Shown one piece after another: positions 1 through 18,939 of a stretch of DNA of 20,000 nt. The notes under the pieces were generated by a model, which saw nothing but the letters and a program-made list of their open reading frames with translations, was not told where the DNA came from and did no database searches. This DNA comes from an uncultured virus (IMG/VR IMGVR_UViG_3300028048_000131). Its lineage: Duplodnaviria > Heunggongvirae > Uroviricota > Caudoviricetes. The stretch's first letter is position 1. Every line of letters begins with the position of its first letter. The translations under genes and the position numbers were made by a program. The stretch lies in IMG/VR virus record IMGVR_UViG_3300028048_000131. The stretch is one strand, 5' to 3'.

Positions 1-445
1 AGCTGTTCATCATCAAAAACGTCTATATCAGCTACGCTAATAAGATTGTTCCGTCATAACTCTATGTAACTACAGACACTATAACAGGGATCTGCTTGAT
101 CCTCCACTACAGATTAGGACTTGCCATAGGATTCCTGCCGAACTAGGGATTACCTCCTCTATTGACAGGTCTGGCCATATAGGATATTTCTCCAAGACTT
201 ATTATAATAGCTGGAGTAGTTCCCTAATATCTCTTGTCAGGAGAAAACGCACATCCGACTTTTACACAGTCCTTATTGAGATTCCCTTTTGGATCATACA
301 TAAGGGAGACCAGTCTCTAATCCTTGATGTTCCGACTGTCGGCAAAGAAGTTGTTAAGAATATCCTTTATGTACTTGACAACCCGGCTCTGCTGTCCGAA
401 AGCATCAGGAAGAGTACTTTTTTCTGTATAATCAGTAAGATTCAT
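1..445 (-). CDS. Virion protein, possibly tail terminator/completion-like (runs off window; TAG-recoded)
   Basis: ATG at 445 overlaps the upstream TGA (ATGA). The frame stays open to base 2 with 7 TAG (317, 224, 143, 107, 62, 32, 23) and no TAA/TGA: MNLTDYTEKSTLPDAFGQQSRVVKYIKDILNNFF...TTPAIIISLGEISY...LLA*LI*TFLMMNS. Function inferred from position and general resemblance. Confidence 0.7.
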
Positions 446-1266
446 TCAAAGGCCTTCTTCCACTAGTCACCGCTTATGAAAGCTTCCTGTAAAACCTGTT
501 GTGCTCTTGGAGTGTGAAGCACGTCGGAAAGCTCTAATAGGTGCATCTTCAACTGATATATAAGCGGCACATGCTTGAATTTGGAAGCTATATCAGCTTG
601 CTCTATATAAAACCGCTGATCAGTGTTATCATCTACCCAGACATCCCCGAGTTCTATAATGGGCCAGGCTGTACACTTAGCCTGTAGTATCACAGATTTG
701 GTGCTCCCTATCTGCTGTATACCCTAATTGGAACTCTATCCTACCTATAATATATTCATAGGAATAGCTCTGTAATAGCCACCCTTGATGCCTGTTCCAA
801 GACACACAGGACAGTGCTAGTTCACAGGAGAGTCATCCTAGAAGTGCATACAGGCAGGGCACTTCTAGCCATAGATGATCTTCTTCATAAGATATCCGGT
901 GCGGCCTGTTTTCTACATCTAAAGCTAGCTGAGACGAATAAGATTGCTTGCCTAGGAACTATATGGATAGCTCAGAGTGATCCCTGCCTGCTGGGGCTAA
1001 GAATAGTACTGCTGACCGTCCGCATTCATTCTAACTCTGTAGTAGTCGTTATTGTATTTGTTGCGGTTGGTTCTTCTATTATCTATATAACAATAGCTTA
1101 CAGGCAGGCCCTCTGCTAAAGTCTACCACGTTCCACCACTGCGAGCATATTCTACTGACAGTAAAGTGTCCTAAGGCAGTGTTATTCCTGCGTCGAACTA
1201 CCAGGAGAGCGCCCTTGAATTATTGGCCAATATAAATACTTTTAAAGCTTTGAACGGACTGGACAT
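442..1266 (-). CDS. Putative neck/head-closure protein with CxxC...CxxCxGxG zinc finger (274 aa; TAG-recoded)
   Basis: ATG 1266-1264 overlaps the upstream TGA (TGATG) and the gene ends TGA at 442. Contains G*KCPACMHF*DDSPVN*HCPVCLGTGIKGGYY, includes track ORF 463..693, and has more than a dozen internal TAG and no other stop. Confidence 0.75.
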
Positions 1267-2171
1267 CAATGCCACCAGCGCTAAGTACTTTCAAGATAGA
1301 TATCAGAGATGCTTCCCATACACTCAAGCATATTCAGCTAGCTCTTTTTAGTCTGCACCCAGCTTTTCCATTCTTGCAGGGCATTCTGAGCGAGCTGCAT
1401 GTACATCTGTCCCTTGTCATTATCATCGTAAGTGAGACCTGCGTTGGCATGTCTCATCTGGTTTCTCATATATCTGTAAGAAGCCATCTTGAAGAGATAA
1501 CCCGAAGCTCCTGTGCAAAGGTTGCTTCTAAAAGGAAAAGTAGAAACAGTAAGATTCCTGGAAAGCTGAGGAGGCATCTAGTTCCAGTCCTGTACTGCGC
1601 GGTCCATGCATCTGGCAATAACGATGTCTGAGAACTAAAGGTCATTGAGGAGCTAGTTCTGCTGGCCTGAAGTGTCATACATCTACATTCTTACCTAAGC
1701 AATGGTAAGCGGCCTGAAGCCACAAGGGCACGGACTCGCCAGGGAATGCTCTATCTAAAGACAGCATTTAAAGATATGTCTGAGAACTCCGTCCTAGTCC
1801 CTGCACTGGAACTAGGCATAGTGAAGCCCCTAATTGCATTCAGTCTGCTAAGGGCCCAGAGAAAAAGTTACTTTTCCATTACCCTGATACTAACAGGGAA
1901 CTTCAAAAATATAGCAGCCTCTGTTCTAAGCAAGACACGCCAATTTTACATTATCAGTAGAATATAACTCTGCGGGAATAGTTCCCTACAGATCTTGTGT
2001 AAGCTGTACGATAAAGTCCGCAGTAAGTCCTGCAGTAGTTCTTATTACAGGCACTCCATAAGAAGAAGCTGCATGTCCGGTGGCCGCTTGGGAAGCCTGC
2101 CCGTCGGCGCCTCCACCGCCCCCAATACCGCCAGCTCCTGGAGTTGCTTCAGGTATGCAAATATCAGCCAT
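1266..2171 (-). CDS. Putative head-tail adaptor/neck protein (301 aa; TAG-recoded)
   Basis: AGGAGG RBS before ATG 2171. Track ORFs 1986..2171 and 1338..1577 are in the same frame and join through 15 TAG, ending TGA at 1266. Motifs PLTIA*VRM, LLDNL*FSD, QDWN*MPP. Function is inference. Confidence 0.75.
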
Positions 2172-2784: not shown

Positions 2785-3348
2785 ATGAAGAACTTCGAAG
2801 AGTACATCTTGAGTTACACAGTGCAGCCTATAGCAGGAGTTTCTACACTAAGAGGAGTTAAAGCGGACCTGACAGTATCACTGCCGCTATTCTATAAAGA
2901 CTATAGGGAGGAACACCCTGATAGCACTGAAACAGAGGCTATAGAGGCTTTATGGAAGCTTGTGGATAAGTGGTCTAAGGAGAATCATATAGAAGAACTC
3001 GGATGTACATTGCAGGCAACGGACGAAGAAACGGAGAAAGTTAGAAGAAGTGAGACAAAATATTTGAAGAGTCTCGAGGAATATATTATTCCGGAAGATC
3101 TTAAGTCAGGACAGTTGCCACACACTTTGGCTAGGTATGACTACTATACAATGGTGAAGGATTATATGGCAGAACATCCAGAAGCGGACTCCAGGCAGTT
3201 ATTGCGAGACCTTATGCAATTTACCTCAGGGACAGGAAATCCCAGAACTATGTTAAAGGCCGTGGGGGATATATCTGATTCAGAGTCTCTGGTAAGTTTT
3301 ACTGTATATGAAACAGTGGGTTATAATAAAGGGTCTTTTCTGGCTTGA
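2785..3348 (+). CDS. Hypothetical protein (187 aa); C-terminus weakly resembles the GatB/YqeY tail domain
   Basis: AGGAGG plus 4 nt then ATG 2785 is a better start than TTG 2740. Ends TGA with no internal TAG. Segment MVKDYMAEHPEA...LLRDLMQFTSGTGNPRTMLKAV. Confidence 0.75.
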   Translation: MKNFEEYILSYTVQPIAGVSTLRGVKADLTVSLPLFYKDYREEHPDSTETEAIEALWKLVDKWSKENHIEELGCTLQATDEETEKVRRSETKYLKSLEEYIIPEDLKSGQLPHTLARYDYYTMVKDYMAEHPEADSRQLLRDLMQFTSGTGNPRTMLKAVGDISDSESLVSFTVYETVGYNKGSFLA

Positions 3349-3374
3349 CAAAAACAGAAGAAGATGTAAGATAA
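3345..3374 (+). promoter_or_regulatory. Sigma70-like promoter (TTGACA-N16-TAAGAT)
   Basis: Perfect -35 TTGACA at 3345-3350 and TAAGAT at 3367-3372; GATGTAAGATAA is repeated exactly in the 3480 promoter. Confidence 0.65.
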
Positions 3375-3412
3375 TAGTACAAGAGGTTGGAGCCGCCTAC
3401 TTCTTGGCACAA

Positions 3413-3473
3413 GTGACCCTTCTGCGGTCCTCCAGAAGAGAGCTTCGGGCGAGGTGCCCGGGCAGAGGGCCAT
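3413..3473 (+). ncRNA. Candidate small structured RNA (three-way junction)
   Basis: GC-rich island between two promoters. Pairings: GTGACCCT/AGGGCCAT, TCTG/CAGA and CGGGC-GAGGT-GCCCG; loop sequences CCTC and GAGG are complementary. No family recognised. Confidence 0.3.
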
Positions 3474-3479
3474 TTAAGG

Positions 3480-3509
3480 TTGACTTTTAGGTACAGTGAT
3501 GTAAGATAA
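3480..3509 (+). promoter_or_regulatory. Sigma70-like promoter (TTGACT-N16-TAAGAT) upstream of the amber tRNA
   Basis: TTGACT at 3480-3485 and TAAGAT at 3502-3507; same -10 context as the 3345 promoter. Confidence 0.62.
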
Positions 3510-3636
3510 AATATGAGCAGCCACTCCGGAGGGTTGTGAGGTTCCTGAAAAGGAGCTGTCCGGAAGTTCTTTGAAAAGCGCTTATGAAAGATATAAAGAG
3601 TTTTCATAAGTCGTTGCTAATAAAGCATTTATAACT

Positions 3637-3710
3637 GCCCGGGTCGTCTAAAAGAAGGATACTGCGCTCTAAACGCGGAGATTGGATTGCAAAATTCCAG
3701 CCGGGTACCA
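3637..3710 (+). tRNA. Amber-decoding tRNA, anticodon CUA, on a tRNA-Glu-type scaffold
   Basis: 74-nt cloverleaf with encoded CCA. Acceptor GCCCGG(G)/(G)CCGGGT-A73, D-stem GTCT/GGAT, anticodon stem CTGCG/CGCGG with loop CT-CTA-AA (anticodon 3669-3671), 4-nt variable loop AGAT, T-stem TGGA(T)/(T)TCCA. Has U11-A24, U13.G22, A46 and no position 47. Confidence 0.9.
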
Positions 3711-3720
3711 AGCAATTTAC

Positions 3721-3782
3721 AGAGGGCTAGAGAGTGCAGCTCGAAAACCTGTTCCCTAGCAGGCCGCCCTCTTTCTTTTTTC
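3721..3782 (+). terminator. Stem-loop plus T-tract after the tRNA (terminator/attenuator in the endonuclease leader)
   Basis: AGAGGGC (3721-3727) pairs with GCCCTCT (3766-3772), followed by TTCTTTTTT; alternative inner GCTAG/CTAGC pairing. Confidence 0.5.
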
Positions 3783-3812
3783 ACCTAGGGAAGTAACAAT
3801 AGGGAGTTATTT

Positions 3813-5015
3813 ATGACACCACAAGAAGCCTGTAATTTTCCACTCGATCTAGAGAATCATTATGGTTACGTATATTGTGTAACCTTTCCTTCCAGTAAAA
3901 AGTATATAGGACAATCCAAGCGTCCCTGGAAATACCGTTGGAAGTGTCACCACTCGGATACATCGTTTTGTCCTGCAATGAAAAATGCCTTGCAAAAATA
4001 TAATACAGAAGAGCTCGTCTGGGAACTTTTGTGTTATGCGGATTCTCCACAAGAATTAACGGATAAGGAAACTTATTATATACAAAAACTATCCACACTC
4101 GCTCCTGGAGGATACAACATTTCTCTTCCTTGTAAGGCTTATCCATACCCAGAAGAAAAAGCAGATAGGATCCGGTTAGGTCTTGCTCTACACCATTTAC
4201 GTAAGACTAATTCTGACGCTACTATAGAAGACGCCAAATATTATATTGCACACAAGGACGACAAGCCTCCTAAATTAGAGAAAGGCTCTCCGGAGTGGAT
4301 AGAGAAGTATAGAATAGCCACAGAAAAAAGAAGAGCTACTATGCAGGCGCGAGGTAAAAACATGAGTGATATCATGAAAAGGGTAGCTAAAGAAAAACCA
4401 TCTATGAATCAAGGAATGTGTGTAGCTCTTATAGTATATGAAACAGGCGAGCAGTTCGAATCCATAGCGGATTTTTGTAATAAATATAACGTTATAAGTT
4501 CTTGCGCATCCTTTTGCTTACAGAAGAAGAATAAAGAAATAGGCGGAATGCATATCTACCCGGCCTCCTGTACTCAAGAGGAATTGCAAGAGTATATAAA
4601 GTTCTGGAATGAGCCTAAAAAAGTTCCTAAAGGTATTCTTACCTGTGTTGAGACAGGCAAAACTTATAGAACGGCTAAAGAAGCAGCGGACGAGCTCTGT
4701 GTACTAAGAAGCAGGATCCACATGGCAACAAGGCGTAATTTACCTGTAAATGGATTTCATTTTATATATGCCCCGGCTGTAGGCGTAAATCCTAATGGTG
4801 GAAAGTCTGTTAAGTGTCTAGAAACCGGTAAGATCTATACATCCCAAAGGGAGGCAGCTAGAGATATACTAAAGGTAACAGACGAGGGGAAAGCCAAGGC
4901 AGGTGCAGACCAGATAAAGAAAGTTATTGAAGGCTCACGTAAGGACTTCCATGGATATCATTTTACTTATGTGGCTACAGGTTCACCCTTAACAATTTCT
5001 CAGGAGCTCCTCTAA
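3813..5015 (+). CDS. GIY-YIG homing endonuclease with three C-terminal NUMOD1-like repeats (400 aa)
   Basis: GYVYCVT...KKYIGQS...RWKCH...WELL...ELTDKETYYIQ...GGYNIS. Repeats VYETGEQFESI, CVETGKTYRTAKEAA and CLETGKIYTSQREAA. GGGAG RBS, ends TAA, no internal TAG. Confidence 0.9.
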   Translation: MTPQEACNFPLDLENHYGYVYCVTFPSSKKYIGQSKRPWKYRWKCHHSDTSFCPAMKNALQKYNTEELVWELLCYADSPQELTDKETYYIQKLSTLAPGGYNISLPCKAYPYPEEKADRIRLGLALHHLRKTNSDATIEDAKYYIAHKDDKPPKLEKGSPEWIEKYRIATEKRRATMQARGKNMSDIMKRVAKEKPSMNQGMCVALIVYETGEQFESIADFCNKYNVISSCASFCLQKKNKEIGGMHIYPASCTQEELQEYIKFWNEPKKVPKGILTCVETGKTYRTAKEAADELCVLRSRIHMATRRNLPVNGFHFIYAPAVGVNPNGGKSVKCLETGKIYTSQREAARDILKVTDEGKAKAGADQIKKVIEGSRKDFHGYHFTYVATGSPLTISQELL

Positions 5016-6122: not shown

Positions 6123-6137
6123 AAATTGGAAGCATAC

Positions 6138-6719
6138 ATGAGAGTGTGGAAAGATATACCTTCTATACCTGATTATCAAGTAAGTTCTGACGGAAAGGTT
6201 AGAAGAAAAGAAAGATATTCTGTTTTTTACGCCAAGAGAATGGGAGGAAGAACAGACAAAGTATCACTAATAAAAAGACACCAAAAAGCTAAAGAGCTAA
6301 GAATACAGTCGTGTTTTGTGTACCCCTCTGTTTCTATTAAAGATAGAATTCGCCAGGTACATAGATTGGTAGCTCAAGCATTTATTCCAAACCCATAGAA
6401 CAAACCTTGTATAAACCATAAAGATGGGAACAAATATAATAGTTGCGTGGAAAACCTAGAATGGTGTACCTACAGCGAAAATGAATTACACTCACACAGG
6501 GTACTAGGTAAGAAAAGTAAGCCTATGACGTAGCAGACAAAGAGAAAGGCCCTGCAAGTTAGAAAAACGAATTACCTTAGTAGATGTCTGGCACTTTTAG
6601 GAGAGAAAGAAACTACTAAGAAAACTAATACGCAGCTTGCTTTATAGCACGGCGTGAGTCGAAGAACAATACAGCAACAATTAAAAGATGCAAAAGCATC
6701 TAGAAAGGAGACAAAATGA
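6138..6719 (+). CDS. NUMOD4-HNH homing endonuclease with C-terminal HTH (193 aa; TAG-recoded)
   Basis: WKDIP..PDYQVSSDGKVR (NUMOD4), then [41 protein letters not shown] (HNH), which continues past TAG 6396. Further TAG at 6531 and 6645; ends TGA 6719 in an ATGA overlap. Confidence 0.9.
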
Positions 6720-6865
6720 GTGAACAAAAAGTTTGCGGAAAACGCACCGAAGTTTACTCTCGATAACGTATCTGTGGCTACTATCGTCCCGTTACCAACT
6801 GGAACCAGGGAAAGCGGGAAGAATTTAAAGATCGTAAGCTCTATAAAGTAAATGCCCCATCCTGA
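6716..6865 (+). pseudogene. Stand-alone NrdD C-terminal glycyl-radical domain interrupted by an in-frame TAA
   Basis: MSEQKVCGKRTEVYSR-TAA-RICGYYRPVTNWNQGKREEFKDRKLYKV matches the NrdD C-terminal YSRxxGYxRPVxxWNxGKxxEFxDR motif. Strong AAGGAG RBS; TAA at 6764-6766. Confidence 0.7.
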
Positions 6866-7277
6866 TACATTCTAGTACATTCCTAAGCCGGGTAACGGTT
6901 ATGTGTACCACATAACCTCCGGCAAGAAACATTATATAGGTATCTCCACTACACCCTTCTCCAGAAGATGGGAACGCCATAAAGCTCCTGACTCAGGCTG
7001 TACAAAGCTTGTGAAGGAGCTTAATCGTCTTCGGGCTACAGGCAACTGGGCCCAACTTAATGTATAGATCCTCAAAGAAGCTCGTAATGCCCAGCTTGAC
7101 AAGCTGTAGAAGAAGTACATAAAGAAGTATGCTTCTTATAAGAGCATCTACGGAATGAACTCCACTCCGGGAGGTAGAGATGTCACTCCTGCCTCTATGC
7201 ACATGAAAAAGCTCTTCAGGAGAACTAAAAGGAAGATTCAAAAGACCCAGGAAACTTTTTCCTGGGACCTTATATAA
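6852..7277 (+). CDS. Small GIY-YIG nuclease (141 aa; TAG-recoded, catalytic Glu position encoded by TAG)
   Basis: GYVYHIT...KHYIGIS...RRWERH...LNV*ILKE...QLDKL*KKYIKKY...YGMNSTPGG. TAG at 6873, 7065 and 7107; ends TAA. Missing from the ORF track. Confidence 0.88.
7240..7266 (-). terminator. Rho-independent terminator for the minus-strand 8323-7270 genes
   Basis: CCCAGGAAA/TTTCCTGGG stem (7246-7266) followed on the minus strand by TCTTTT, 3 nt after the TAA at 7270. Confidence 0.6.
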
Positions 7278-8444: not shown

Positions 8445-9167
8445 TCAAATTCCCAACAATGTTCTGAGATCTTCATAGGTCTTACATTTCTTTACAGCTG
8501 TTTTAGTAGTTGCTGCAAATTCTTCCGGATGGTTATCGGTCAAATATGCATAGAGCATGTTGTAGTCCTTGCTGTTAAGCCATCCCTCTACCTGCTCTTT
8601 TTCAGAGGGCTCTTTCTTTTCTGTGAATACAGATACTCCGTCTGCTTTGGGCAGATTATTATGAGAGGTAGAAGTGAACACATTAGAAGTCTTTTCTTCA
8701 ATAGGTTCCGCCTTGCCGTTCTTCAAAGCTACTTCTTTAATGTCGCTTTTAGCAGTCTCTTCGGTTTTCATTCCCATAGAAGCTGCCATACCTGCAGATT
8801 TCCCGGCAATAATAGTGCCTCCGCCAGAACCATTAAGATCCTTTTTCTCAGCTTTTGCAGGTTCTAGTTTAATCGGCTTTGCCTTTGGGGCTTCTTCCTG
8901 TTTTTCGATCTGGATGTTAATAGAGCCCTCCGGGGAGATCTGAATAGTGTTCTCTGAAGTCACAACCTGTGTATCAATACGCAGAGTGCCTCTCTTTACA
9001 GCGTTTTCGCATTCAATTTTATCTGCTCTACTGATAATAGAGAAAAGATCATAGGGGAGTGTAATAGTTTCTCCTCCTCGAATAGAGATTCTCTTTCCTC
9101 TTCCTGCTTTTAAAGTGTACGGGGTTCTGTTAAGATTCGTAATTGCGGTTTTTACACTGGCTACCAT
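8445..9167 (-). CDS. Hypothetical protein downstream of the major capsid gene (240 aa)
   Basis: AAAGGAG RBS, intact ORF ending TGA, no TAG; two compact regions joined by a Lys/Glu-rich linker. Confidence 0.8.
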   Translation of the reverse strand: MVASVKTAITNLNRTPYTLKAGRGKRISIRGGETITLPYDLFSIISRADKIECENAVKRGTLRIDTQVVTSENTIQISPEGSINIQIEKQEEAPKAKPIKLEPAKAEKKDLNGSGGGTIIAGKSAGMAASMGMKTEETAKSDIKEVALKNGKAEPIEEKTSNVFTSTSHNNLPKADGVSVFTEKKEPSEKEQVEGWLNSKDYNMLYAYLTDNHPEEFAATTKTAVKKCKTYEDLRTLLGI

Positions 9168-9217
9168 AAAATACTCCTTTCTGAGTTGTTGTTTATGTAA
9201 ATGTATATGTACAAGGC

Positions 9218-9249
9218 AAAAAATAAAGCCCGCAGATTTCTCCGCGGGC
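9218..9249 (-). terminator. Rho-independent terminator after the major capsid gene
   Basis: Minus strand reads GCCCGCGGA-GAAA-TCTGCGGGC-TTTATTTTTT. Confidence 0.8.
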
Positions 9250-9272
9250 CTTACTTACCGATCAGATATTAA

Positions 9273-10295
9273 TCAGTTGCTTCCGCTTTCGCTATCGGAA
9301 CCAGCCGGAATGGCATCGGTCCAGTAGGTTGCATTAGCAGCTTCGGCGGGATCTAGGCTGTAAGTAACCTTGCAGACACCAGCACGGTTGGCGATAACGC
9401 CGCCGATGGTTTCATGTGCGAAGAAGGTCAGCTCGATGTTGTCCTTTTCGTCAGTAACCATATTAACATCTTCGTAGGTGTAGAACTTGCCGTAGAATTC
9501 CGGTTCGGTGAAGATCCACTGATCATAGTAATCACAAACGGTTTCCTTGGAGGTGACGAGGACATCCAGGCCGTTGAGTTTCTGATAGCGGACGCCATCG
9601 AACAGCATATCCTGGGCCATATCGCCGCCGATTGCATCGCGACCGAAGATAGCCATCTTGTTGTACAGGATTTCGTGCATAATGGACTTCGAGGCTTTCA
9701 GTTTGCCTTTGGTCAGAGCCATACCATCCAGACCGTTGGTGAAGCCGAAGCGGTCCCAGGGCTGATAGATAGCACGACGGACACCAAATTCGGCAATCTG
9801 TGCGGACTGATCGTTCCAGTCACCGACGATGGCCTGGTTTTCAGCATGCCAGGTTTCATCTTCGACATCCATGATGTCTTTCAGCATCAGGTCGTACAGG
9901 ATGTCCAGCATCGGCATCTTGTAGCCAGTCAGACGGATTTTGTCGATGTGATATTTCGGAGTCATGATCCGATTGAATTCACAACGCATTTTACGTCCGT
10001 TGAAGGTTGCTCCGGTGGTCGGGGCTTCGAAGGACACCATGCTGGCGCCTTCGGAGTTGAAGTCCAGTTCAACGATCATGCTCGGCAGATCGGAAACTTC
10101 GTTGACATCGAAGTCATCGGCAGTAACTTGTACCGGGGGAAGCAGTTTGCGGTAAACTGCATTCTCACGAATACGGGTACGGAAATAGGTGGTACCAGGC
10201 AGCCCAGCTGTCTTTACCATAGTAGAGTCATTGCTCAGGAGCTTGTCTTTGAATTCCTGATCAATAGCTTTAATCTGTTCAGAAGTGTAAGCCAT
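9273..10295 (-). CDS. Major capsid protein (probable HK97 fold; 340 aa)
   Basis: Size, position after protease-scaffold-decoration genes, high-expression-like codon bias, own terminator, and motifs RIRENAVYRKLLPP and KDIMDVED resembling large-phage capsid proteins. No TAG; ends TGA. Confidence 0.78.
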   Translation of the reverse strand: MAYTSEQIKAIDQEFKDKLLSNDSTMVKTAGLPGTTYFRTRIRENAVYRKLLPPVQVTADDFDVNEVSDLPSMIVELDFNSEGASMVSFEAPTTGATFNGRKMRCEFNRIMTPKYHIDKIRLTGYKMPMLDILYDLMLKDIMDVEDETWHAENQAIVGDWNDQSAQIAEFGVRRAIYQPWDRFGFTNGLDGMALTKGKLKASKSIMHEILYNKMAIFGRDAIGGDMAQDMLFDGVRYQKLNGLDVLVTSKETVCDYYDQWIFTEPEFYGKFYTYEDVNMVTDEKDNIELTFFAHETIGGVIANRAGVCKVTYSLDPAEAANATYWTDAIPAGSDSESGSN

Positions 10296-10315
10296 ATTTC
10301 TTATTCCTGTGTTAT

Positions 10316-10334
10316 GGGGCCTTATACAGGCCCC
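10316..10334. promoter_or_regulatory. Intergenic GC hairpin just upstream of the capsid gene RBS
   Basis: GGGGCCT-TATAC-AGGCCCC; the T-tract follows only on the + strand. May stabilise capsid mRNA or stop antisense transcription. Confidence 0.45.
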
Positions 10335-10349
10335 TTTTGTTTACTTAGA

Positions 10350-10937
10350 TCAAGCCTTGCCCGGGAAGAACACGGTCCAGAAGCAGAGACGATTGTTACC
10401 TTCGCCGTTCACATTGAAGGAAGCTTTGGAACGGAAGGGAACCCGACTGACGATACCGACGATGGTCTCGTTGCCATAGATGGTCTGAGAACCAGCTGCG
10501 GTAACTTTACCGGTATCAGCTGCTTTCAGGGCAGTGTTTACGGTGTAGTCAGCAGCAGCATCAAATTCGGAGGTTTCCAGTTCAAAACCGCCAGTGGCAA
10601 CATAAGCCGGGAGACGGCCACCAACCAGAGAAGTAGCCAGGACTTCACCGGTCTTTGCGCCGACCGCGCCAGTCATCACATCCGGATCGAAGGCGTTCTT
10701 GCGGGAGAACATTGCCATCGGATACTTGTTTCCGCTGCCTTTCGGGCATCCCAGTTTGAATTTGCCTTCGGCGTTCAGGGACACAACGGACCCACGGACG
10801 ATTTTTGCTGCGCTATCAGAAGCAGCTTCACTCAGAGGCGCAGTAAAGATCAGCTGGTTGGAGACTTCCAGATCGCCAGCCTTTACATCGCAGTAGTTTT
10901 CATACTGCTGATTCACTGTTCTAGTAATTTTAGCCAT
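10350..10937 (-). CDS. Probable capsid decoration/cement protein (195 aa)
   Basis: Gly/Ala/Val-rich beta-type sequence (IVRGSVVSLNAEGKFKLG, GGFELETSEFD, IVGIVS) immediately upstream of the capsid gene; no TAG. Confidence 0.62.
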   Translation of the reverse strand: MAKITRTVNQQYENYCDVKAGDLEVSNQLIFTAPLSEAASDSAAKIVRGSVVSLNAEGKFKLGCPKGSGNKYPMAMFSRKNAFDPDVMTGAVGAKTGEVLATSLVGGRLPAYVATGGFELETSEFDAAADYTVNTALKAADTGKVTAAGSQTIYGNETIVGIVSRVPFRSKASFNVNGEGNNRLCFWTVFFPGKA

Positions 10938-10949
10938 TTTTTATTCCTT

Positions 10950-11357
10950 TTAGTTCAATGTGAGACCTAGTTCTTTGGCAACTTCTGCATAAGCTCTCTC
11001 CCTTTCATTCATGGGAGCTTCGCTTTTTCCGATCAGAGTGCCTCCATCCAGGTTCACAGATTCAGTCTTTATAAGGGTACTAGCGTCTGCGGCTTTCTTG
11101 CAGAGAGCTGTAATCACTCGAAGGGAAGCGTTCGGGTCAGCACCAAGCAGACGCATAGATTCATCTGCCTGATCTTCACTAAGGCTTCCCATCTTCACGA
11201 GAGCTTCTACAGACTCTTTCAGAAGGACCGGATCAGCAAAGCTAGCCTGCTTCTTAAGCAGCAGGGAATTCTGAAGGTGAGAGATCTCCTCTTCATATTT
11301 CCTACACTGCTCAGTAGCATCCAATGCAATCTGTTTCCAGTCTTCTGCCATGATCAT
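10950..11357 (-). CDS. Helical head-assembly/scaffold-like protein (135 aa)
   Basis: ATGA overlap with the upstream gene, coiled-coil-like N-terminus, KKQAS motif, ends TAA, no TAG. Confidence 0.65.
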   Translation of the reverse strand: MIMAEDWKQIALDATEQCRKYEEEISHLQNSLLLKKQASFADPVLLKESVEALVKMGSLSEDQADESMRLLGADPNASLRVITALCKKAADASTLIKTESVNLDGGTLIGKSEAPMNERERAYAEVAKELGLTLN

Positions 11358-12661
11358 GCCTTCTTGGAAAGAACTTTCATCAGGTTCGCGCCGCGGCGGG
11401 TAGAAGCCAGCTTGACAAGAGTCTGCTGACGCGCATCTTTGACAGCTGCATGATAAGCAGCCTCTTTTCCCATATCTTCAGCAGGAGCTTCTTCCTTAGC
11501 AGGCTCTTCAGCAGGTGCTTCTGCCGGAGCTTCCGGAGCAGCTTCTCCACCTTCACCTTCCATCTCAGCAGCAACAGCCTGAATTACTTCTTCAGGAGAG
11601 ATGCCCTGCTTGGCAGCTTCATCGAGAATCTGCTGGGCCTGGGCCATGTCTTCTTCGGAGGGCTCTTCATCGCCTTCGCCGGCTCCCATCAGTTCCTGGG
11701 CAGCTGCTTCAAGCAGCACTTCAGGTTCGACACCCATCTGTTCAGCAGCATCAACAACATCGCTGACAGCCTGTGCAATATCATCACCGGAGACCGGCTG
11801 ACCGAGCATTTCAGAAACCTGAGCAGCTGTTTCATCGAGACCATCCATAAAGGCAGCTTGTTCCTGTTCGGCACCAGCCAGATCAGAGAGGGCTTCGCCT
11901 TCAGCTTCGGCCTGTATTTCGGCGGCAGCTTCCGGATCCTCTGCAACAGCCGCATCAAGTGCAGCAGCGGCATCTTCCGGGGACATTTCATTTTCAGCTG
12001 CAAGGGCATCAATTTCAGCAGCCTGTTTTTCCATCAGCTTATGTTCAACTGCAATATTGAACAGCGGATTAGTTTCCTGCAGCTTCTGGAAAGAGACCTG
12101 GATATCGCTAGCAATTTTAATAAAATCTTCTTCAGATTTAACATCATTCAGAGAAGCAATCTTATGCAGAACTTCAGTAGCGGTAGTAACTTCTTCTTCC
12201 TTGGCGGAAGCTTCTTTCTTCAGCTGTTCTTCTTTGGCTTTTTCTTCAGCTGCTTTCAGGGCAGCTTCTTTAGCCATTTCAGACTTTACAACAGATTCGA
12301 TCCGAGTACGGAAAGCAGCGGATTTGACTACTTCCGCCGGGGTACCGGCAGGGGTTCCGCACGGGTACATTTTGTCAACAGCAGTACCGGTTTCAGCCAG
12401 TACTTTTTCAGCCTTCTTGTCATCATCGCCTTCGATCTTCTTATCAGCGATTTCAACAGTGCCTTTCAGTTCGGCATCAACAGATTTGTCGGAAGCATAA
12501 TTGCCCTTAGTGGCAGACTCAGTTTCCTTCTGCATCTGATCGCCAATAGCAGGCTGTGCAGCATCCAGCTGCTTGTGTGTAATTTCCTGTGCTTCTTTCT
12601 TCAGGACACCGGCAGCATCTGCAAGCGCCATGAGATGAGCAGCTCTTTTACTAATTCCCAT
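11354..12661 (-). CDS. Acidic Ala/Glu-rich scaffold protein (435 aa)
   Basis: Very acidic and helical, located between the protease and capsid genes; more than 60 Glu, all encoded by GAA/GAG; many K-x-A-[AS] motifs. Confidence 0.7.
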   Translation of the reverse strand: MGISKRAAHLMALADAAGVLKKEAQEITHKQLDAAQPAIGDQMQKETESATKGNYASDKSVDAELKGTVEIADKKIEGDDDKKAEKVLAETGTAVDKMYPCGTPAGTPAEVVKSAAFRTRIESVVKSEMAKEAALKAAEEKAKEEQLKKEASAKEEEVTTATEVLHKIASLNDVKSEEDFIKIASDIQVSFQKLQETNPLFNIAVEHKLMEKQAAEIDALAAENEMSPEDAAAALDAAVAEDPEAAAEIQAEAEGEALSDLAGAEQEQAAFMDGLDETAAQVSEMLGQPVSGDDIAQAVSDVVDAAEQMGVEPEVLLEAAAQELMGAGEGDEEPSEEDMAQAQQILDEAAKQGISPEEVIQAVAAEMEGEGGEAAPEAPAEAPAEEPAKEEAPAEDMGKEAAYHAAVKDARQQTLVKLASTRRGANLMKVLSKKA

Positions 12662-12696: not shown

Positions 12697-14217
12697 TTAA
12701 GGGTTTACCGTTCTGTAACGGGCCAGTTTCTGCATGGCCAGATTACAGGTATCTTCACTATTACGAGCAGCAAAACTCAGTACATATCTTGCATAAGTTC
12801 TGCGGAACTCCTAACCAACCAAACTTGCTGTTTTCTAAATGTCCTCCTTCTCCTTTTCTTCTTTTTCAGTCTCCTATTTCTAGGATTCCTTCTAAGGTTC
12901 CTTATCGGACTCTTTGAGTTTCTCAACAAATTCTTTTTTATTGTCTTCTGTTTCCTGCTTGCCGGGAGCTCCCAGATGGATCTCAATACGAATAGATCTT
13001 CCGTTGAGAGCCGGTCTGCTGATACCCATATCAGGTACGAAGCTCTCCAGAACATTGGCAAGATTCAGATCTGCAGGAAGGGCTGTATCAAAGCTGCCAT
13101 CCAGCATATGCCCTCTGAACTGAGGATCATTTTCCATGTCCTGCATGAGATGCTCACAATCGCAGGGGCAGTTATCAGCGAACATGTCAAAGAAAGCCTT
13201 TTCGGGAGACTCCTTCCCCATCAACTTAAATAAAGCTCTCGGGGAAAGCAAGATAGCTTTTCTATTACATTGATCAAGAACTTCATCGGCATCAAAATTC
13301 TATACCGCGTGTAGAAAATCATCTTCTACATTCTTGTCATCTACAAACAGCGGATCATCCTAAGTCTTACAAAGAATCTCTTTCTAGATCTTAGAAAGCT
13401 TTGAAAGAGTAGCTGCAATTTTATTAAAAGAGATAGAAGGACGGAATCCGTTCATAAGGTACTTAGAAGAAATTGCTTCCTAAGCCTTTTCCCCAGAAGC
13501 GACTTTTCTAAGCACATATGCCATAGTGTCTGCAGGAACATTCACACCGGAGATATCATAGAACTTAGGATTATCATTGATCATGGCCACTCTGGTACCG
13601 TCTTCAAGAAGGAGCCCTGCATGTTTCTTAATGTGCTAGCAGTGCTCATCAAGAGTGTGCGCACGATGCCCACATGCGGTACAGGCGTCCGTTTGGACGG
13701 TACAGCCAATAGAAAGGAAAATGTCCTGTCCAGAGGCTCTCTTATGAAGACGCTCCGCCCACTTATCTGCATCAACTTCTATAAGAAGCTATCCTCTGTG
13801 CATAGGTTCGTTATACACAGCCGCCTTTACAATACCGGAAGGAGCTTCGTCTGTACGATGCTCTTGATATACATAAGCTCCATCAAGATATGTCTTATGA
13901 CAGTTCTTCAATCCATCTCCCACATGCACTGTAAGAGAAGCTTCTTTTGCAAGAGGCGGATGGAAGTCATAAGGGCCTTCATTATAAGCATCGTTATTAC
14001 GATTGGGACCAAATACTTCAGAGGCACATGTAGTAATAACATGCAGATAAGCTTTCTTTTCGATAGGCTTCAGCTCTTTGATTTCTTTTTCAAAGGCTGC
14101 TGCCCGTTTCTGCATAGAAGCTGTCTTATCGAGCCCTCTGGAGCTCACTTTGAGGATCTCTACAGGAGTATCTCCACGAAGGTCCTATGAATTGGGAACA
14201 ATTGTTTTATATAGCAT
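12697..14217 (-). CDS. Probable prohead maturation protease (506 aa; TAG-recoded)
   Basis: Track ORFs 13789..14148 and 12892..13251 are one frame, from ATG 14217 to tandem TAA TAA at 12697/12694. Motifs FGPNRNNDAY, VYQEH, MHRG*LLI, LSIGCTV..DACTACG...EHC*HIK and FYDISGVNVPAD; lies ahead of scaffold and capsid genes. Confidence 0.75.
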
Positions 14218-14218
14218 A

Positions 14219-15952
14219 TTAGTTGCCTTTCCCAAGAAGAACATCCTGCTGATATCTTTCAGGATGTGCGGCATAATACTGCTGCAAGGACTGCAGTAAA
14301 GCTGCTTTCTGTTTAGAATCCAACTGATTCAGAGAAGGCTTGCCTTTAAACTTAAGCTGTGTACCTGCGCGACGGACAGCTTGAATATTTGACTTATTGA
14401 GAAGATTCTTTTTAACAGTATCCTGGAACTGCTTAATATAAGCTTCAGTAGCTTTGACTTCTTCTCTGCGACGAGCTTCGTAATCTTTTTCCTACTCCTA
14501 CTTATCGGTCTTGATCTTATCCAGAACAGCATCAAAGTCTTTACCAAGATCTTTTTCAAGCAGCCCGTGAGGAGCCACATTGGCAAGTGCCCCGGAGATA
14601 GAAGGAAGAACTTCCGACAGGCTTTTTCCTTTGGTCTCTGCCTAAGGTTTCTTGGAGGCAACTGTTTCAGGAGCCAGTTCTTTACGCTTCTCCTCTGTCT
14701 AAGTAACCTTCTTAAGAATGTCCGCAGTAGCAGCAAGGTCCGCTTTATTGGTGCGATTCCCTGCAAGCAGTCTGGAAGCTACTTCAGCTTTCAGATATTC
14801 ACGCATACGAGGACTTGCCATATCCTGATTAGTGGCAATAGTATCTTCGACAGCTTTTTCGATTTCAGCTGCAGGATACTGGGCAAAATCAGGATTGGCC
14901 AGCATATCGATAAGACGCATGCGTTTGTCCTGATATTTATCCTTGCTGAGAAGCTAAAGAGAAATAGCTTCCTACGGAGAGTATCCTTTAGAGGGATTCA
15001 GAAAAGGGGCGGACTGCCCGAGGATACTTTCGGACTGCCCAACCACTCCCTTCGTACCCGCTAACAGCGCATTTACAGGAACACTTACAGCATTTGCTGC
15101 AATGTCCTTCAACATAGTATAGCCAGGCCCTACAGCTTCTTTACAGAGGGCTAACTTTTTCAGCTTGCCTTCGATCTCCACAGCTTCTTTAGCCATTCTG
15201 CGAACACTTGCAGTCTTCATCATAAGAAGATCTCTCTTGGTGTCCACTATATCGGACTGCTGAATGGTCTTCTCAACGTACTCGACAACAGGAGACTTTG
15301 GAAGGATAGCATAAGCTGCGTGCTTCTTCAGGGCCTCCTCTGGAACTTTCCCTGTAAAGAGCTTATTATAAGTATCTCCATAAACAGTTGCCAGAAGCTT
15401 TGCTGTTTTAACATCGCCAGAGAGCATTTCAGCTGCACGCTTTACCATCCGTTCCAGCTGCTAGTTTTCCCGAAGGAAAGTATCGTGCTGTTCCTGGAAA
15501 GCGGCTTCTTCTTTGATCATATAATCTTCGAGTCTCTGGAGGAGCTGCAGAGGAGTGACTTCCTTGACAGGCTGTTCCTGCTTGGGAACTGAAGCGGCTT
15601 TTTTAAGTTCGGCCTTATGCACTTCAAAGACAAAAGGAGTGTTTACAGAAGCTGCTTTGGAAAGACCTTCTTCACATCCTCGTATAGAAGCTACTTTATT
15701 GAAGTCCGCCAGAGGAAAGTCCTCGGCCTTTTCACTTTCAGGGCGCTTACCGATAGTAACTACAGAGATCCTTCGATTGAAAGCCTGTGTAGCTGTCTTG
15801 GTCAGCTCCTTGGGAACATTGGATTCTGTGAGCTGTTTGGCGAGAATCTCACTTCTGTCCTGATCGGAGGCCAGCGCCATAGAGGCTGCCTTCTAAATAG
15901 CATCCGTGAGCTTGAATTCAGTAATTCTGTCCAGTTTTTTCAGGTCTTCCAT
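14219..15952 (-). CDS. Large helical putative head-internal protein (577 aa; TAG-recoded)
   Basis: Track ORFs 15461..15880, 14972..15448 and 14699..14920 share one frame separated only by TAG. Runs from ATG 15952 to TAA 14219, 1 nt from the next ATG; many K-x-A-[AS] motifs. Confidence 0.78.
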
Positions 15953-15953
15953 A

Positions 15954-16832
15954 TCAGGCCTTTTCCTCTTTATGTGTAATTTTCTATATTACCTAATTAG
16001 TGGGATCGTTTCCGGTAGAAGCTGTGATTTCGACTTGAGTATATGTACGTACGCTGGCATCAAGTCCGGAGGCAATAGTGTCCATCAAGCCCTCCTGGCC
16101 CTAGGAAGTATCCTGCTTATTCTAAAGAATAAATGCATGATCCTCGCGGTTTTTCATAGCTTGCTACATTGACGATACATATATCTAGATAGGCACGTTA
16201 AGATTCTGTGCCATATAATCGAACAGTTGTTTGTTTCTGGCATCTCTCCACATAGCCTACATAGCTTCTTTGGCACTTTTCCCGGAGTTACCGAAGCGGA
16301 GACTGTGCAGAGCTGCTTCCAAAGAGTGATAGTGAGCAAGTGCTCTGGCTCTGAAGAGGTTCATAGACTTACCCTGTCTGGCAGGCTATAGAAGCATCTG
16401 CTAGAACCATTCGGCAATTCCCTGCACTCCCTGAAGATCGCAGAAAAGATCTGCATACATCTTTGCCTGTACAGGTGAGAGCCATTTAAGCTTCTGGGAA
16501 GTTTTCTAAGGAGTAAGTCCGTATATGATACAGGCCTATAGAGCAGCTTTCAGCTGGGAGCTGTTATCCATGCTTCCCAGCATCATAACCTGCCAGGCAT
16601 CCGGATACTTGGCTCTAATGAACTATCTGCTGGAAAGATTCCTGCAAGCTCTTTGTATACGGGCAAAATAAAGAACTATGGGCTAGTAAGTAACCAGACA
16701 CGCTTTATCTTTCATGTCTGACAGTGCAAGCTTCTGTGCTTCCTGCCAGCGCCAGTCCGGGGCACGCAAAAAAGAGTCCCGAGTGAACTCAGGGCTCTTT
16801 TTGAAAGGTGCTTTTTCGTTACTTACAGGCAT
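15954..16832 (-). CDS. Hypothetical protein (292 aa; heavily TAG-recoded, absent from the ORF track)
   Basis: AGGA RBS and ATG 16832: MPVSNEKAPFKKSPEFTRDSFLRAPDWRWQEA...LKAAL*ACII...N*VI*KITHKEEKA-TGA. About a dozen TAG; exactly fills the gap between its neighbours. Confidence 0.75.
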
Positions 16833-16845
16833 TGTTCCTAGGCCA

Positions 16846-18939
16846 TTATTGCATCATCGTGCCCGTCTGCAGGTCCCCGGCATCAGGACTTTCACCGGTA
16901 CCAAGACTTCTAAGTTTAACGAATATAGTCAGCTAAGACAAGTCCTTAATAGTATTCTGCAGCGACTTTTCCAGTGCTTTCATCTTTACTGCGCCGTAGC
17001 GCTCTTCAAGGTCCTGCATATGGCATCTGTACATGAAAAGCATCTGGCAGAGCTTATCCAGAGTCTGCATGAAGTCAGGTACGATGTCCATAATGGCAGC
17101 ACCCGGATCAGCTTCCTGCATAAGGAGCTTGAACACAGATACATCGAAAACTTCCTTTACACCAGCTTCAGTAGCTTTCTGTACAGTATCAACTATCTGA
17201 TTGCTGTCTTCCAGTGCTTTGTTCTGAAGATCTTCGGTAGTTACTTCCGGGGGTTCTTCAGTAGTTTCAGTCATACTGATATCTGCAGGTTTCCATGCAG
17301 TGGAGTCGTCTTCCTAAGAATCTCCGATAAGCTCAGCTTTCTTATGCAGCAGGAAAGTAGTGGTATAAAGCTTGCCAATCTCCCCTGCGCCAGCCATTTT
17401 AAGCATAGTCTTTGCATCCTGAGGACAAATACCATAGTTCTTCACCAGGTGCAGACAAGCTTCTTTTTCCATGAACCGATCAGAGGGCTTGGAAGCAGGC
17501 CCGTAGAAAGAAATCTCCTGTCCATCGGAAGTCATTTTGATCTTAGTGGTGGACTTATTGATGAATCTTTCAATTGTTCTGCCAAGATCTGCAATTCCAA
17601 CATACAGCCCCTTCGAGGAGGCTTTCTCATTGGAGATAAGAATCACACGGGTACCCTGCGGGACTTCAAGAACTCTGTCATATTGCAGAGAAGATCTCAG
17701 TTTATCGTCCTAAGACTCTTTGATAGTCATATTGTAAGAATAGAAAGATCCGTCTGAAGAGGACTTGGAAAATCCTCCGCGAACTTCCAGAACAGCCCCG
17801 GAGGGCAGTACCAAAAGAAGATCACTGTAGTTAGGATCTGCAGAAGAGAACTTTTCACCAAGATCTTCCGGCTTCAGTTCCTTGATAGTATCCTTGATAG
17901 CCGTAACAGCAGGCACTTCAAAGGCTTTGCCGTCCTTGATAATATAGGACTTGAACCCACCGTAGTGCTTCATCTCATCCCTACCATCCACATAGAAAGG
18001 ATCAGAGGTATATGCGCCTTTCAGTCCCCACGGGCTCTGTCCTTTGATGGGATTGGCAAGAACGTAAGTAATGTCTTCTGTATCTCCGTTACCCATCAGT
18101 ATCTAGCACTTACAGGAAACTTCAGGAGTTACGAAAGCATTGGTAAGGTTCTTCTTTTCGATTACTTTAATGGAGCTGTCACGGTCATCCCAGTCAACTT
18201 TCTAAGCTCTCTTGATTACATATCCGTCTTTCCAGAGAATCTTTTTCTGATCATCTGTAAGCAGAGAAGCTCTCTTGTCCATAACTGTAATCAGTTCAGT
18301 TTCAGGATCATCAGGATACTTTTCACAGGCTTTCTTGGCAAATCCCTTAATATCCTACGGAGAGTAGAATTTGAAGGTTTCATTGATAAAGTCCGTATTG
18401 CTGAGATAATCCATGAACTTAAGAGCAGCCTTTTTGCCCATCTTAAGAACAGTATCAAAAACGGTGGTTTCCTTAAAGGAAGCATTCTTCAGAACAGGAT
18501 CGATAGGCTCTCTTGAACGGGCGCTGCCGGGGGTCTTGCCATAAAGGTTGGCATCTTCAGGAGGAATAGATTCGGCTCTGCCGACATCGTTTTTATTCTT
18601 TACCCAGTTCAACCAGGCATCAGACAGCGGCAGGAAAGTCTGCAGACCGGGAACTTCCATGATCTCATCGATGTAGATCTTGCCATTCTGGAACACAGCA
18701 GGAACATAAACAAGGTTCTCGCCCAATTTATAAACAACAATACAGACAGCGAAAGAATTGTCGTCGTTCTTATCGAGAAGCTGAACAGCTACCTGATAAT
18801 CGCTCAGGCTGGGGTATTTATCCGTGATCTGCGCATTTGCCAGAATACCAAACTGCTGTTCAAAAGAAGGCCCCTCCCCAGGTTCACCTTGGGCCTTTTT
18901 ATACAGGGTGCCTGCTTCAACAATTAATTTCTTTGACAT
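16846..18939 (-). CDS. Large putative virion/head-internal protein (697 aa; TAG-recoded)
   Basis: Track ORFs 18355..18939, 17710..18096, 17314..17646 and 16933..17274 are in one frame joined by TAG; ends TAA at 16846; K-x-A motifs throughout. Confidence 0.8.

Follow-up and report, generated by a model that had tools for sequence, protein, structure and literature searches.

A tRNA with anticodon CUA in a large cattle-gut phage and the predicted reading of TAG as glutamate

In the passages on which we draw, Borges et al. (10.1101/2021.08.26.457843) report only two reassignments for phages whose genetic code is unlike that of the host, TAG to glutamine (Gln) and TGA to tryptophan (Trp). The corresponding parts of other studies assign TAG to Gln in phAss-1 (PMC10607447), treat TAG as Gln in a survey of jumbo phages (PMC13037316), and predict the suppressor tRNA isotypes Gln, Trp, Ile and Tyr, with no glutamate (Glu) among them, in work on the theta-ribozyme (PMC10879173). 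The same parts of two of these sources also describe recoded phages in which no suppressor tRNA was found (PMC10607447, PMC13037316). Full-text literature searches, with supplements outside their scope, returned no report of TAG as Glu in phages. We analyzed a stretch of 20,000 nucleotides (nt; the window) of the uncultured virus record IMGVR_UViG_3300028048_000131, which is part of a large cattle-gut phage and includes a tRNA gene with anticodon CUA, hereafter tRNA(CUA). TAG is a sense codon in this phage, and tRNA(CUA) is probably the phage's own amber-reading tRNA, predicted to deliver Glu.

TAG as a sense codon and the residue it encodes

Stop-free frames of at least 150 codons cover 0.56 of the window, and 0.87 when TAG is read through. 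Among 67 related loci, a gain in coverage of this kind occurs only in those of two genomes, G001 and G002. The last 127 nt of the window (19874-20000) are identical to positions 106553-106679 of G002, an IMG/VR contig of 106,679 nt rated 57% complete, and thus G002 is a neighboring piece of the same phage. The overlap suggests that the assembly broke within the RNA polymerase gene, and the two pieces could be joined. G001 (192,052 nt, with terminal repeats and rated complete) is a syntenic relative with about 65-70% nucleotide identity in conserved genes. We identified 92 in-frame TAG codons in 11 open reading frames (ORFs) of the window. Eight window ORFs, among them those of the head-gene block and those surrounding the tRNA, are free of TAG, and each has TGA or TAA as its stop. 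The genome thus combines genes with in-frame TAG and a tRNA with the anticodon expected of an amber suppressor.

The window ORFs, with X at each TAG, were aligned by tblastn to 65 related loci that use the standard code. In the 764 aligned cells at TAG, the relatives have Glu in 41%, aspartate (Asp) in 19% and Gln in 8%. In the same alignments, ordinary Glu codons are matched by Glu in 32.5% of cells, and ordinary Gln codons by Gln in just 16%. When columns are scored by majority (n = 40), 15 are Glu, 7 Asp and 3 Gln. Likelihoods calculated from the tblastn alignments place Glu first in the window (10.1 nats over Asp and 12.1 over Gln), in G002 (3.3 nats over Asp and 12.4 over Gln) and in G001 (21.4 nats over Gln; 218 columns). 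Two TAG columns of the RNA polymerase fragment are nearly or fully invariant, with Glu in 63 of 65 relatives at residue 156 and in all 65 at residue 247. The pattern expected under code 15 (TAG = Gln) was not found in the window alignments.

Codon composition was also considered. Five ORFs contain more TAG than GAA and GAG combined; in these, GAA plus GAG account for 1.4-3.8% of codons and, together with TAG, for 4.8-8.2%. Codons for Gln already make up 2.0-5.8% of the same ORFs. Were TAG read as Gln, the two TAG-richest genes would have about 10% Gln and 2.5% Glu. By alignment and composition, Glu is the best-fitting residue at TAG, so that the relatives and the codon usage bear out the first-pass annotation, which had assigned TAG to Glu rather than to Gln.

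The database proteins of the closest relatives (P0001-P0033) have Gln at the TAG columns of the window, also where Glu is invariant in standard-code relatives, and P0001, with 99% identity, has Gln at all five. Glu and Gln toggle among close relatives at these columns and distant relatives have Glu, and toggling of this kind is expected where TAG was translated under code 15. Gln in these proteins is probably a product of gene calling under code 15, and the entries mistranslated.

The tRNA(CUA) and its resemblance to tRNA-Glu

The gene (positions of its parts are given in Table 1) encodes a four-armed cloverleaf that has a 3' CCA and whose 7-nt anticodon loop contains U33 and a purine at 37. 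The acceptor stem has six of seven pairs (G1.U72 and five Watson-Crick pairs, with C-G at both 2:71 and 3:70) and a mismatch, G7.G66; the discriminator is A73. U8 and C9 are followed by a fully paired D-stem (GUCU/GGAU, with G10.U25, U11-A24, C12-G23 and U13.G22), a 7-nt D-loop (AAAAGAA) with one G in place of G18 G19, and A26. The anticodon stem has all five pairs and encloses the loop CUCUAAA. The variable loop (AGAU) has 4 nt and lacks nucleotide 47, and the T-arm (UGGAU/UUCCA) has four of five pairs and the loop UGCAAAA. Several tertiary partners are in place, namely U8-A14, A15-U48, U54-A58, U13.G22 with A46, and C56 with the single G of the D-loop. The canonical elbow (G53-C61, U54 U55 C56 R57 A58, G18 G19) is not preserved as a whole, but U54, C56, A57 and A58 are retained.

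The Rfam tRNA model (RF00005) aligns to the gene end to end (model positions 1-71, E 1e-3 for 551 nt searched), and the minimum free energy fold is the cloverleaf. A Glu covariance model, which we built from 75 bacterial tRNA-Glu genes and ran unfiltered over both strands of the whole window, finds tRNA(CUA) at 42.1 bits (E 1.3e-10), with the next match at 11.1 bits. The gene is the sole credible CUA cloverleaf in the window and the 106-kb G002 (126 kb of this phage) according to our own cloverleaf scan, which is blind to split genes. Other CUA cloverleaves that the scan returned from G002 and G001 were set aside as chance-like, as they have neither a T-loop nor CCA. A further tRNA-like match in G002 (11975-12057, equal to L069 1501-1583, + strand; Rfam 36.2 bits) receives no ARAGORN call; its D-arm is all but missing, its loop reads CUUAUAC (anticodon UAU), and 24 nt are inserted ahead of the T-arm. 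We confirm tRNA(CUA) as a genuine element, an amber-reading tRNA; the cloverleaf with anticodon CUA and encoded CCA that had been noticed in the first pass is upheld by the sequence, the end-to-end Rfam alignment and the Glu model.

An 18,953-nt contig from a different study (run X4, DNA) matches window positions 3635-3710 at all but two of 76 nt. Upstream of 3635 the contig and the window are unlike, 3711-3785 is replaced by 91 other letters, and alignment resumes at 3786-3868 with ten differences; the contig's flanks of the tRNA are unalignable at 80% likeness. The homing-endonuclease gene adjoining the tRNA differs at 63 of 562 positions in another run X4 contig. Thus, the tRNA is a discrete, conserved unit, kept while its flanks diverge. 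Exact-pattern scans found no further copies, either in the viral contig collection (anticodon arm; D-arm plus loop; loop plus T-arm) or in metagenome contigs (D-arm plus loop). Runs X5 and X6 cover short pieces away from tRNA(CUA) only.

Major determinants of Glu identity in bacterial tRNAs include U11-A24, the U13-G22:A46 triple and the lack of nucleotide 47; acceptor pairs count as weak ones, there is no requirement for the discriminator, and one glutamyl-tRNA synthetase (GluRS) charges exclusively tRNAs that combine this augmented D-helix with the nucleotide 47 deletion (PMC9976931). Bacterial GatCAB recognizes U1-A72 (PMC2811023, PMC9976931). All of the D-helix features that the first-pass annotation had listed (U11-A24, U13.G22 with A46, no nucleotide 47) are present in tRNA(CUA), and the pair U1-A72 is indeed absent, G1.U72 standing in its place.

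The D-arm itself is less specific than had been supposed. We searched one genome per species (185,579 species) for the pattern UCGUCUA, 5-10 nt, AGGAYA, 5 nt, CU. At least 120 loci were listed, of which 16 have no typed tRNA; among the 112 ARAGORN-typed tRNAs listed are 89 Glu, 20 Gln and one each of Gly, Arg and Pro. The signature is therefore one of Glu or Gln (Glx), not of Glu. Two earlier arguments fall with this result: the D-arm (UCGUCUA...AGGAYA) is not Glu-specific, since the 20 tRNA-Gln among the listed matches carry it too, and the contrast with a GCCA/AGGC D-stem fails for tRNA-Gln in general, as these 20 share the signature. In addition, all 20 reference tRNA-Gln have a 4-nt variable loop, so that the GluRS marks of the D-stem and variable loop are common to tRNA-Gln.

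From the listed matches we parsed a reference set of 81 tRNA-Glu and 20 tRNA-Gln. The first pair, G.U in the window, is G-C in 54 and G.U in 27 of the 81 tRNA-Glu; in tRNA-Gln it is U-A in 19 of 20 and G.U in none. A73, as in the window, occurs in 39 of 81 tRNA-Glu and 3 of 20 tRNA-Gln, 17 of which have G73. The window also has C-G at 3:70 (68/81 Glu, 6/20 Gln) and at 27:43 (54/81 Glu, 3/20 Gln). Its A15-U48 pair is tRNA-Gln-like, as is its short D-loop. Where GluRS is expected to find the anticodon-loop bases U34, U35, C36 and A37, the window has C34, U35, A36 and A37. C34 is that of natural CUC isoacceptors (28 of the 89 typed Glu among the matches listed), and position 36 deviates because the tRNA is an amber reader. 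The loop CUCUAAA is one change from CUCUCAA of natural tRNA-Glu(CUC) (e.g., in L286), in agreement with the first-pass remark that CUA is one substitution from the Glu anticodon CUC.

Among 109 distinct tRNAs of 20 isotypes from five bacterial genomes, the nearest to tRNA(CUA) is a tRNA-Glu(CUC), identical at 54 of 71 positions, and Glu has the highest mean score of any isotype (13.2, the next being 6.0; tRNA-Asp has 4.0). In our reading, the body descends from or mimics tRNA-Glu(CUC), in which one anticodon change would have produced an amber reader, with a shortened, degenerate D-loop and a degenerate T-arm. An origin from tRNA-Trp (CUCUAAA is also one change from CUCCAAA) was considered and dropped, as Trp is not among the nearest isotypes and the D-arm is Glx in 109 of the 112 typed tRNAs listed. 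ARAGORN identified 39 distinct phage tRNAs in 116 loci but no tRNA-Glu, so that no direct ancestor was found; the tRNA clusters of five standard-code relatives lie away from the syntenic place.

The build of the tRNA thus excludes a Gln-type body and acceptor end and leans to Glu, but by itself would be no proof of Glu. The tRNA-Glu body proposed in the first pass stands as far as the nearest tRNAs, G1.U72, A73 and the 4-nt variable loop are concerned; the Gln-like D-loop of 7 nt and the narrow model margin given below speak against it. That the tRNA supports Glu independently of the protein evidence was an overstatement, given margins of only +2.5 and +6.3 bits and a D-arm that is Glx. The degenerate state of the T-loop and D-loop had escaped notice in the first pass.

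Surroundings of the gene, its relatives and metagenomic counterparts

Two promoter-like sites lie upstream of tRNA(CUA), as had been claimed for sigma-70-like promoters; both were found by consensus matching alone. Both carry GATGTAAGATAA, a combination that occurs nowhere else in the window or the 106-kb G002. These consensus matches would be the promoters that drive the tRNA. The leaders at 3378-3479 and 3513-3636 have fold z-scores of -1.14 and -2.33, and no RNA family was found in them. An int-alpA RNA motif begins 10 nt after the CCA and is likely the terminator of the tRNA unit. By our own reading, a hairpin of like design and placement follows the split tRNA of G001. Three homing-endonuclease genes flank the locus.

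The equivalent interval of G001, between the homologs of window ORF 1266-2171 and of the GIY-YIG gene at 6852-7277, holds a tRNA(CAU) gene and, 7 nt beyond it, the gene of a split tRNA(CUA) (both within L070 1573-1163, - strand, equal to G001 about 91007-90597). The intron of the split gene matches the group I model of Rfam (RF00028) at 31 bits, below the cut-off of 50, and parts of it recur at more than 10 places in G001. After splicing (junction U|G and G|A), the tRNA(CUA) has an anticodon loop (CUCUAAA) that is the same as in the window. It is otherwise canonical, with GG in a 7-nt D-loop, T-loop UUCGAAU, G1-C72, U11-A24 and U13.G22, and the bacterial tRNAs closest to it are those for Arg and Lys rather than Glx. 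BLAST of the exons and intron against the window and G002 identified no counterpart.

G001 also encodes a GluRS-type protein of 356 amino acids (aa). By our own reading, class I synthetase motifs of the HIGH and KMSKS types are present in it. The bacterial GluRS model TIGR00464 (cut-off 290) gives the protein 202.9 bits, its score as a glutaminyl-tRNA synthetase is just 24 bits, and PF00749 is its only Pfam match. Alignment to a solved GluRS involves residues 3-232 only, which correspond to residues 15-298 of 481, and no anticodon-binding domain was detectable by Pfam or in this alignment. We identified 13 clusters of similar proteins of 354-385 aa, one of them on a 177-kb contig, beyond which scores fall to those of cellular GluRS. 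These proteins form a small clade on phage-sized contigs. No such gene was found in the five standard-code relatives, nor, using PF00749 and tblastn, in the window or the 106-kb G002, although G002 spans the syntenic interval.

JGI metagenome contigs were scanned for the D-arm pattern followed by the loop CUCUAA. Of 63 loci found, 27 form plausible cloverleaves by our own criteria, 22 of them distinct. The first pair is G.U in 8, G-C in 5, C-G in 2, U-A in 7, U.U in 4 and U.C in 1. The margin of the Glu over the Gln model runs from -1.5 to +26.5 bits in the G-starting tRNAs, a range that includes the window tRNA, and from -6 to -27 bits in the U-starting ones. In another seven U-starting tRNAs (L305, L307, L315, L316, L324, L339 and L342), an extra element of about 18 nt follows the anticodon arm; their margins extend down to about -35 bits, the Gln model scoring far above the Glu model. 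The T-loop is not UUCRA in 8 of the 27 (L313, L320, L322, L328, L338, L351, L356 and L364; e.g., AUCAUCC, GGCAGCA and CUCGACC). The deviant elbow is thus not unique to the window tRNA, and phage amber tRNAs may show this trait repeatedly. The flanks of many of these loci gain stop-free-frame coverage when TAG is read through.

The window encodes an RNA polymerase beta'-like protein (PF04998), a major head protein (phrog_2522) and several homing endonucleases. Whole-window megablast against GenBank phages gave no match, and the major head protein as query in the viral contig collection gave no confirmed relative. The release-factor domain PF00472 (RF-1) has no match in G001 or G002. The coding regions follow a two-class pattern, the head block being without TAG, and TAG accounting for as much as 78% of the presumed Glu codons in neighboring genes. 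The TAG-free block at 8445-12661 can be read with the code of the host. The major head protein is spared TAG here, unlike the late-gene bias described for code-15 phages. Many RNA polymerase beta' homologs of this phage group (e.g., P0006, P0026 and P0073) have intein-type domains (PF14528, PF05203, PF01079 and PF14890), and the G001 copy is longer by about 146 residues.

Table 1. Features of the window and of the syntenic relative G001. Client genes are those predicted to depend on tRNA(CUA) for reading of in-frame TAG.
Feature	Coordinates	Strand	Evidence and remarks
Client gene	442-1275	-	15 TAG in 277 codons; GAA+GAG just 2.5% of codons
Client gene	1266-2171	-	15 TAG in 301 codons
Promoter-like site 1, TTGACA-16-TAAGAT	3345-3372	+	Consensus scan, 10/12 matches
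Promoter-like site 2, TTGACT-16-TAAGAT	3480-3507	+	Consensus scan, 9/12 matches; about 130 nt upstream of the tRNA
tRNA(CUA)	3637-3710	+	74 nt including encoded CCA; Rfam 28.0 bits; Glu model 42.1, Gln model 35.8
Parts of tRNA(CUA)	Acceptor strands 3637-3643/3700-3706; D-arm 3646-3660; anticodon 3669-3671; T-arm 3683-3699; CCA 3708-3710
int-alpA RNA motif (RF02996)	3720-3790	+	Three-way junction ending in a U-run; 39.9 bits, gathering score 35.8
GIY-YIG homing endonuclease gene	3813-5015	+	No TAG
HNH homing endonuclease gene	6126-6719	+	Three TAG
GIY-YIG homing endonuclease gene	6852-7277	+	Three TAG
TAG-free block	8445-12661	-	Five ORFs, including the major head protein (9273-10295)
Client gene	12697-14274	-	12 TAG; column of residue 162 Glu in 50/50 standard-code relatives
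Client gene	14219-15952	-	8 TAG
Client gene	15954-16832	-	13 TAG; 7/13 TAG columns Glu-majority in relatives
Client gene	16846-18939	-	6 TAG; 697 aa
Client gene, RNA polymerase beta'-like C-terminal part	18964-19998	-	5 TAG; runs off the window; PF04998 homologs
G001 split tRNA(CUA), exons	L070 1490-1457 and 1204-1163	-	252-nt group-I-like intron
G001 GluRS-type protein	L237 718-1788 (G001 19638-20705)	-	356 aa; no in-frame TAG

Decoding by tRNA(CUA), alternatives and known systems

We propose that sigma-70-like promoters of its own would drive the tRNA, and that the int-alpA-type hairpin and its U-run would close the unit. The region around the gene would not require TAG to be read, so that host ribosomes could express what surrounds the tRNA. 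After processing, GluRS would load tRNA(CUA) with Glu, given the GluRS marks that it retains (U11-A24, U13.G22 with A46, no nucleotide 47, U35 and A37). It would be neither charged with Gln nor converted to Gln-tRNA, as it has neither G73 nor U1-A72, the mark of GatCAB; because GatCAB recognizes U1-A72, Glu would stay Glu. The charged tRNA would then let ribosomes read the 92 in-frame TAG codons of the 11 ORFs, in some of which TAG would be the majority Glu codon. We infer the steps of transcription and processing, the charging enzyme (GluRS of the host, or one encoded by the phage in a stretch of its genome missing from the assembly) and a working elbow. A non-discriminating GluRS accepts both tRNA-Glu and tRNA-Gln and tolerates C or G at position 36, which makes it a plausible host enzyme.

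A number of observations weigh against a working, Glu-charged tRNA(CUA). In the elbow, 53:61 is U.U (G-C in 98 of the 101 reference tRNAs), U55 is replaced by G, and the D-loop has a single G, and the elbow may be impaired. The Rfam score of 28.0 bits is 1 bit below the gathering score of 29, which is why tRNA(CUA) is missing from the whole-window Rfam gathering scan. ARAGORN makes no call in the window with default or relaxed thresholds (-ps, -ps90, -ps80 and -ps70) because of U53.U61, the G at 55 and the single G of the D-loop. The fold energy is ordinary (z = -0.63). A contig from an RNA library (run X1, 1750 nt, identical) holds the locus but cannot show transcription. With respect to Glu, the 7-nt D-loop is that of 18 of 20 tRNA-Gln and of none of the 81 tRNA-Glu, in which it is always 8-12 nt. 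Pair 31:39 is G-C, which occurs in none of the tRNA-Glu (C-G in 80/81; A-U in 13/20 tRNA-Gln). A36 replaces C36, listed as a strong Glu determinant (PMC9976931). A naive profile, with anticodon and D-stem left out, favors Glu over Gln by just +2.5 bits, where true Glu, when left out, score +24.5 to +74.3 and true Gln -99.8 to +8.2. The isotype covariance models favor Glu (42.1 versus 35.8) by just +6.3 bits, where the margin of real Glu is about +27 to +37, that of real Gln -17 to -41 and that of unrelated tRNAs 0 to +15; the Glu model gives real tRNA-Glu 78-100 bits and the window tRNA 42. In the protein alignments, one TAG column is Gln-majority (38 Gln, 11 Phe) and about one sixth are Asp-majority. 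The genome is also incomplete (57% for G002), so that another decoder or synthetase may lie elsewhere.

Some of these points would be explained if tRNA(CUA) were a decaying or non-decoding tRNA-like remnant and the real TAG decoder, perhaps intron-split like that of G001, lay in the unassembled part of the genome. The degenerate T- and D-loops, the G7.G66 mismatch, the lack of an ARAGORN call and the Rfam score below the cut-off fit a remnant, as do the incomplete genome, the canonical intron-split tRNA(CUA) used by G001 and the blindness of our own scan to split genes. However, the 76 nt kept with two changes between unalignable flanks are unexpected for a remnant, the anticodon stem is perfect, and CCA, U8-A14, A15-U48, U54-A58 and C56 are in place. 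Among 27 other CUA tRNAs that share the D-arm, 8 also have odd T-loops, and the exons of G001 match nothing in the window or G002. We regard a remnant as improbable. A functional suppressor charged by a phage-encoded minimal GluRS like that of G001, in a self-contained pair and not by the host enzyme, has a better but still minor chance of being correct. It is favored by the TAG-free gene for the 356-aa GluRS-type protein of G001, by the 13 clusters of similar short proteins, by the absence of the gene from all five standard-code relatives, and by A36, a handicap for a host GluRS that reads the anticodon. It is disfavored by the lack of such a gene in the window and in G002, which spans the syntenic interval, and by the bacterial Glx D-arm that the window tRNA keeps and the G001 tRNA does not. 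The Glx D-arm in the window, with the G001 tRNA nearest to Arg and Lys, fits use of the host enzyme by the window phage.

Insertion of Gln, as in published code-15 phages, would agree with the assignment of TAG in the passages cited above (10.1101/2021.08.26.457843, PMC10607447 and PMC10879173), with the Gln-like D-loop length and A15-U48, with the D-arm found in 20 tRNA-Gln among the matches listed, and with Gln in the database proteins. The last of these toggles with Glu among close relatives, as it would under code-15 translation. Against Gln are its majority in 3 of 40 columns (Glu 15), a likelihood 12.1 nats worse than that of Glu, and the skewed composition (about 10% Gln and 2.5% Glu) that would result in the two TAG-richest genes. 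The tRNA also has A73 and no U1-A72, its 2:71 and 3:70 are both C-G, and the Gln model loses to the Glu model; we consider Gln very improbable. Asp is the second most common majority residue in TAG columns (7/40) and the likelihood runner-up in the window and G002, but Glu is better by 10.1 nats in the window, Asp-majority columns also occur under ordinary Glu codons (27/254), and the tRNA body is nearest to tRNA-Glu (mean 13.2 versus 4.0 for tRNA-Asp). We give insertion of Asp hardly any credence.

If tRNA(CUA) does deliver Glu, the host synthetases that phages are able to exploit would be more varied than thought. Recoding in phages is annotated as TAG = Gln by default, and with Glu at TAG the protein entries of the relatives would be systematically wrong. 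That tRNA(CUA) is missed by ARAGORN and falls just below the Rfam cut-off offers one explanation for recoded phages in which no suppressor tRNA was found. The split between G-starting and U-starting tRNAs suggests a rule in which the first base pair would decide whether TAG is Glu or Gln. We tentatively put forward a broader proposal, which we hold to be less likely than not: a lineage of large cattle-gut phages may have reassigned TAG to Glu, so that in some of their genes most Glu codons would be TAG, using Glx-derived decoder tRNAs that keep GluRS marks, lack U1-A72 and in some cases evade tRNA finders through deviance or introns, with at least one relative pairing the tRNA with a minimal GluRS. 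If this is true, the pair in G001 would be a naturally evolved, largely anticodon-blind synthetase with its suppressor, and part of the TAG = Gln translations of phages in databases would be wrong. Orthogonal translation pairs could be modeled on the minimal GluRS of G001 as a natural template.

The closest cellular tRNAs are bacterial tRNA-Glu(CUC) (L286 in genome G012; also L122 and L146), which share with the window tRNA UC at 8-9, the D-stem GUCU, G1.U72 and A73. The anticodon loop of L286 differs only at 36, and its variable loop is AGAUC where the window has AGAU. Unlike these tRNAs, tRNA(CUA) has the anticodon CUA, a 7-nt D-loop without GG (8-12 nt there), G31-C39 in place of C-G, the T-loop UGCAAAA and U53.U61. 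Some ciliate nuclear codes have TAA and TAG encode Glu. Those codes are eukaryotic and nuclear and involve no conflict between virus and host, so that the resemblance to the window phage is in outcome only.

Among phages, the split tRNA(CUA) of G001 shares with that of the window the syntenic place, the (spliced) anticodon loop, G1, U11-A24, U13.G22, the 7-nt D-loop, CCA and the reading of TAG as Glu. It differs in the intron, canonical D- and T-loops, D-stem (GUUU/GAAC), the preceding tRNA(CAU) and the phage GluRS, and overall identity is only about half. The G-starting Glx-type CUA tRNAs of metagenomes (e.g., L308, L322, L323, L337 and L354) share the D-arm signature and the CUA loop, and some have odd T-loops; the Glu model scores at least as high as the Gln model within 1.5 bits, and stop-free frames cover more of their flanks once TAG is read through. 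They are not closely related to the window, with which they have few or no protein matches, and most have a D-loop of 8 nt that includes GG, along with a T-loop of the normal kind. The code-15 phages (crAss-like, Lak, the clades of Borges et al. and phAss-1), as presented in the passages used here, have in common with the window phage a phage tRNA(CUA), in-frame TAG in many genes and none in others, and a host that presumably uses the standard code. They assign TAG to Gln, whereas the window phage fits Glu and its tRNA has G1.U72 instead of U1-A72 and an odd T-loop missed by ARAGORN. Compared with these, the suppressor tRNA of the window phage stands apart in its predicted amino acid and in an unusual shape that evades tRNA finders.

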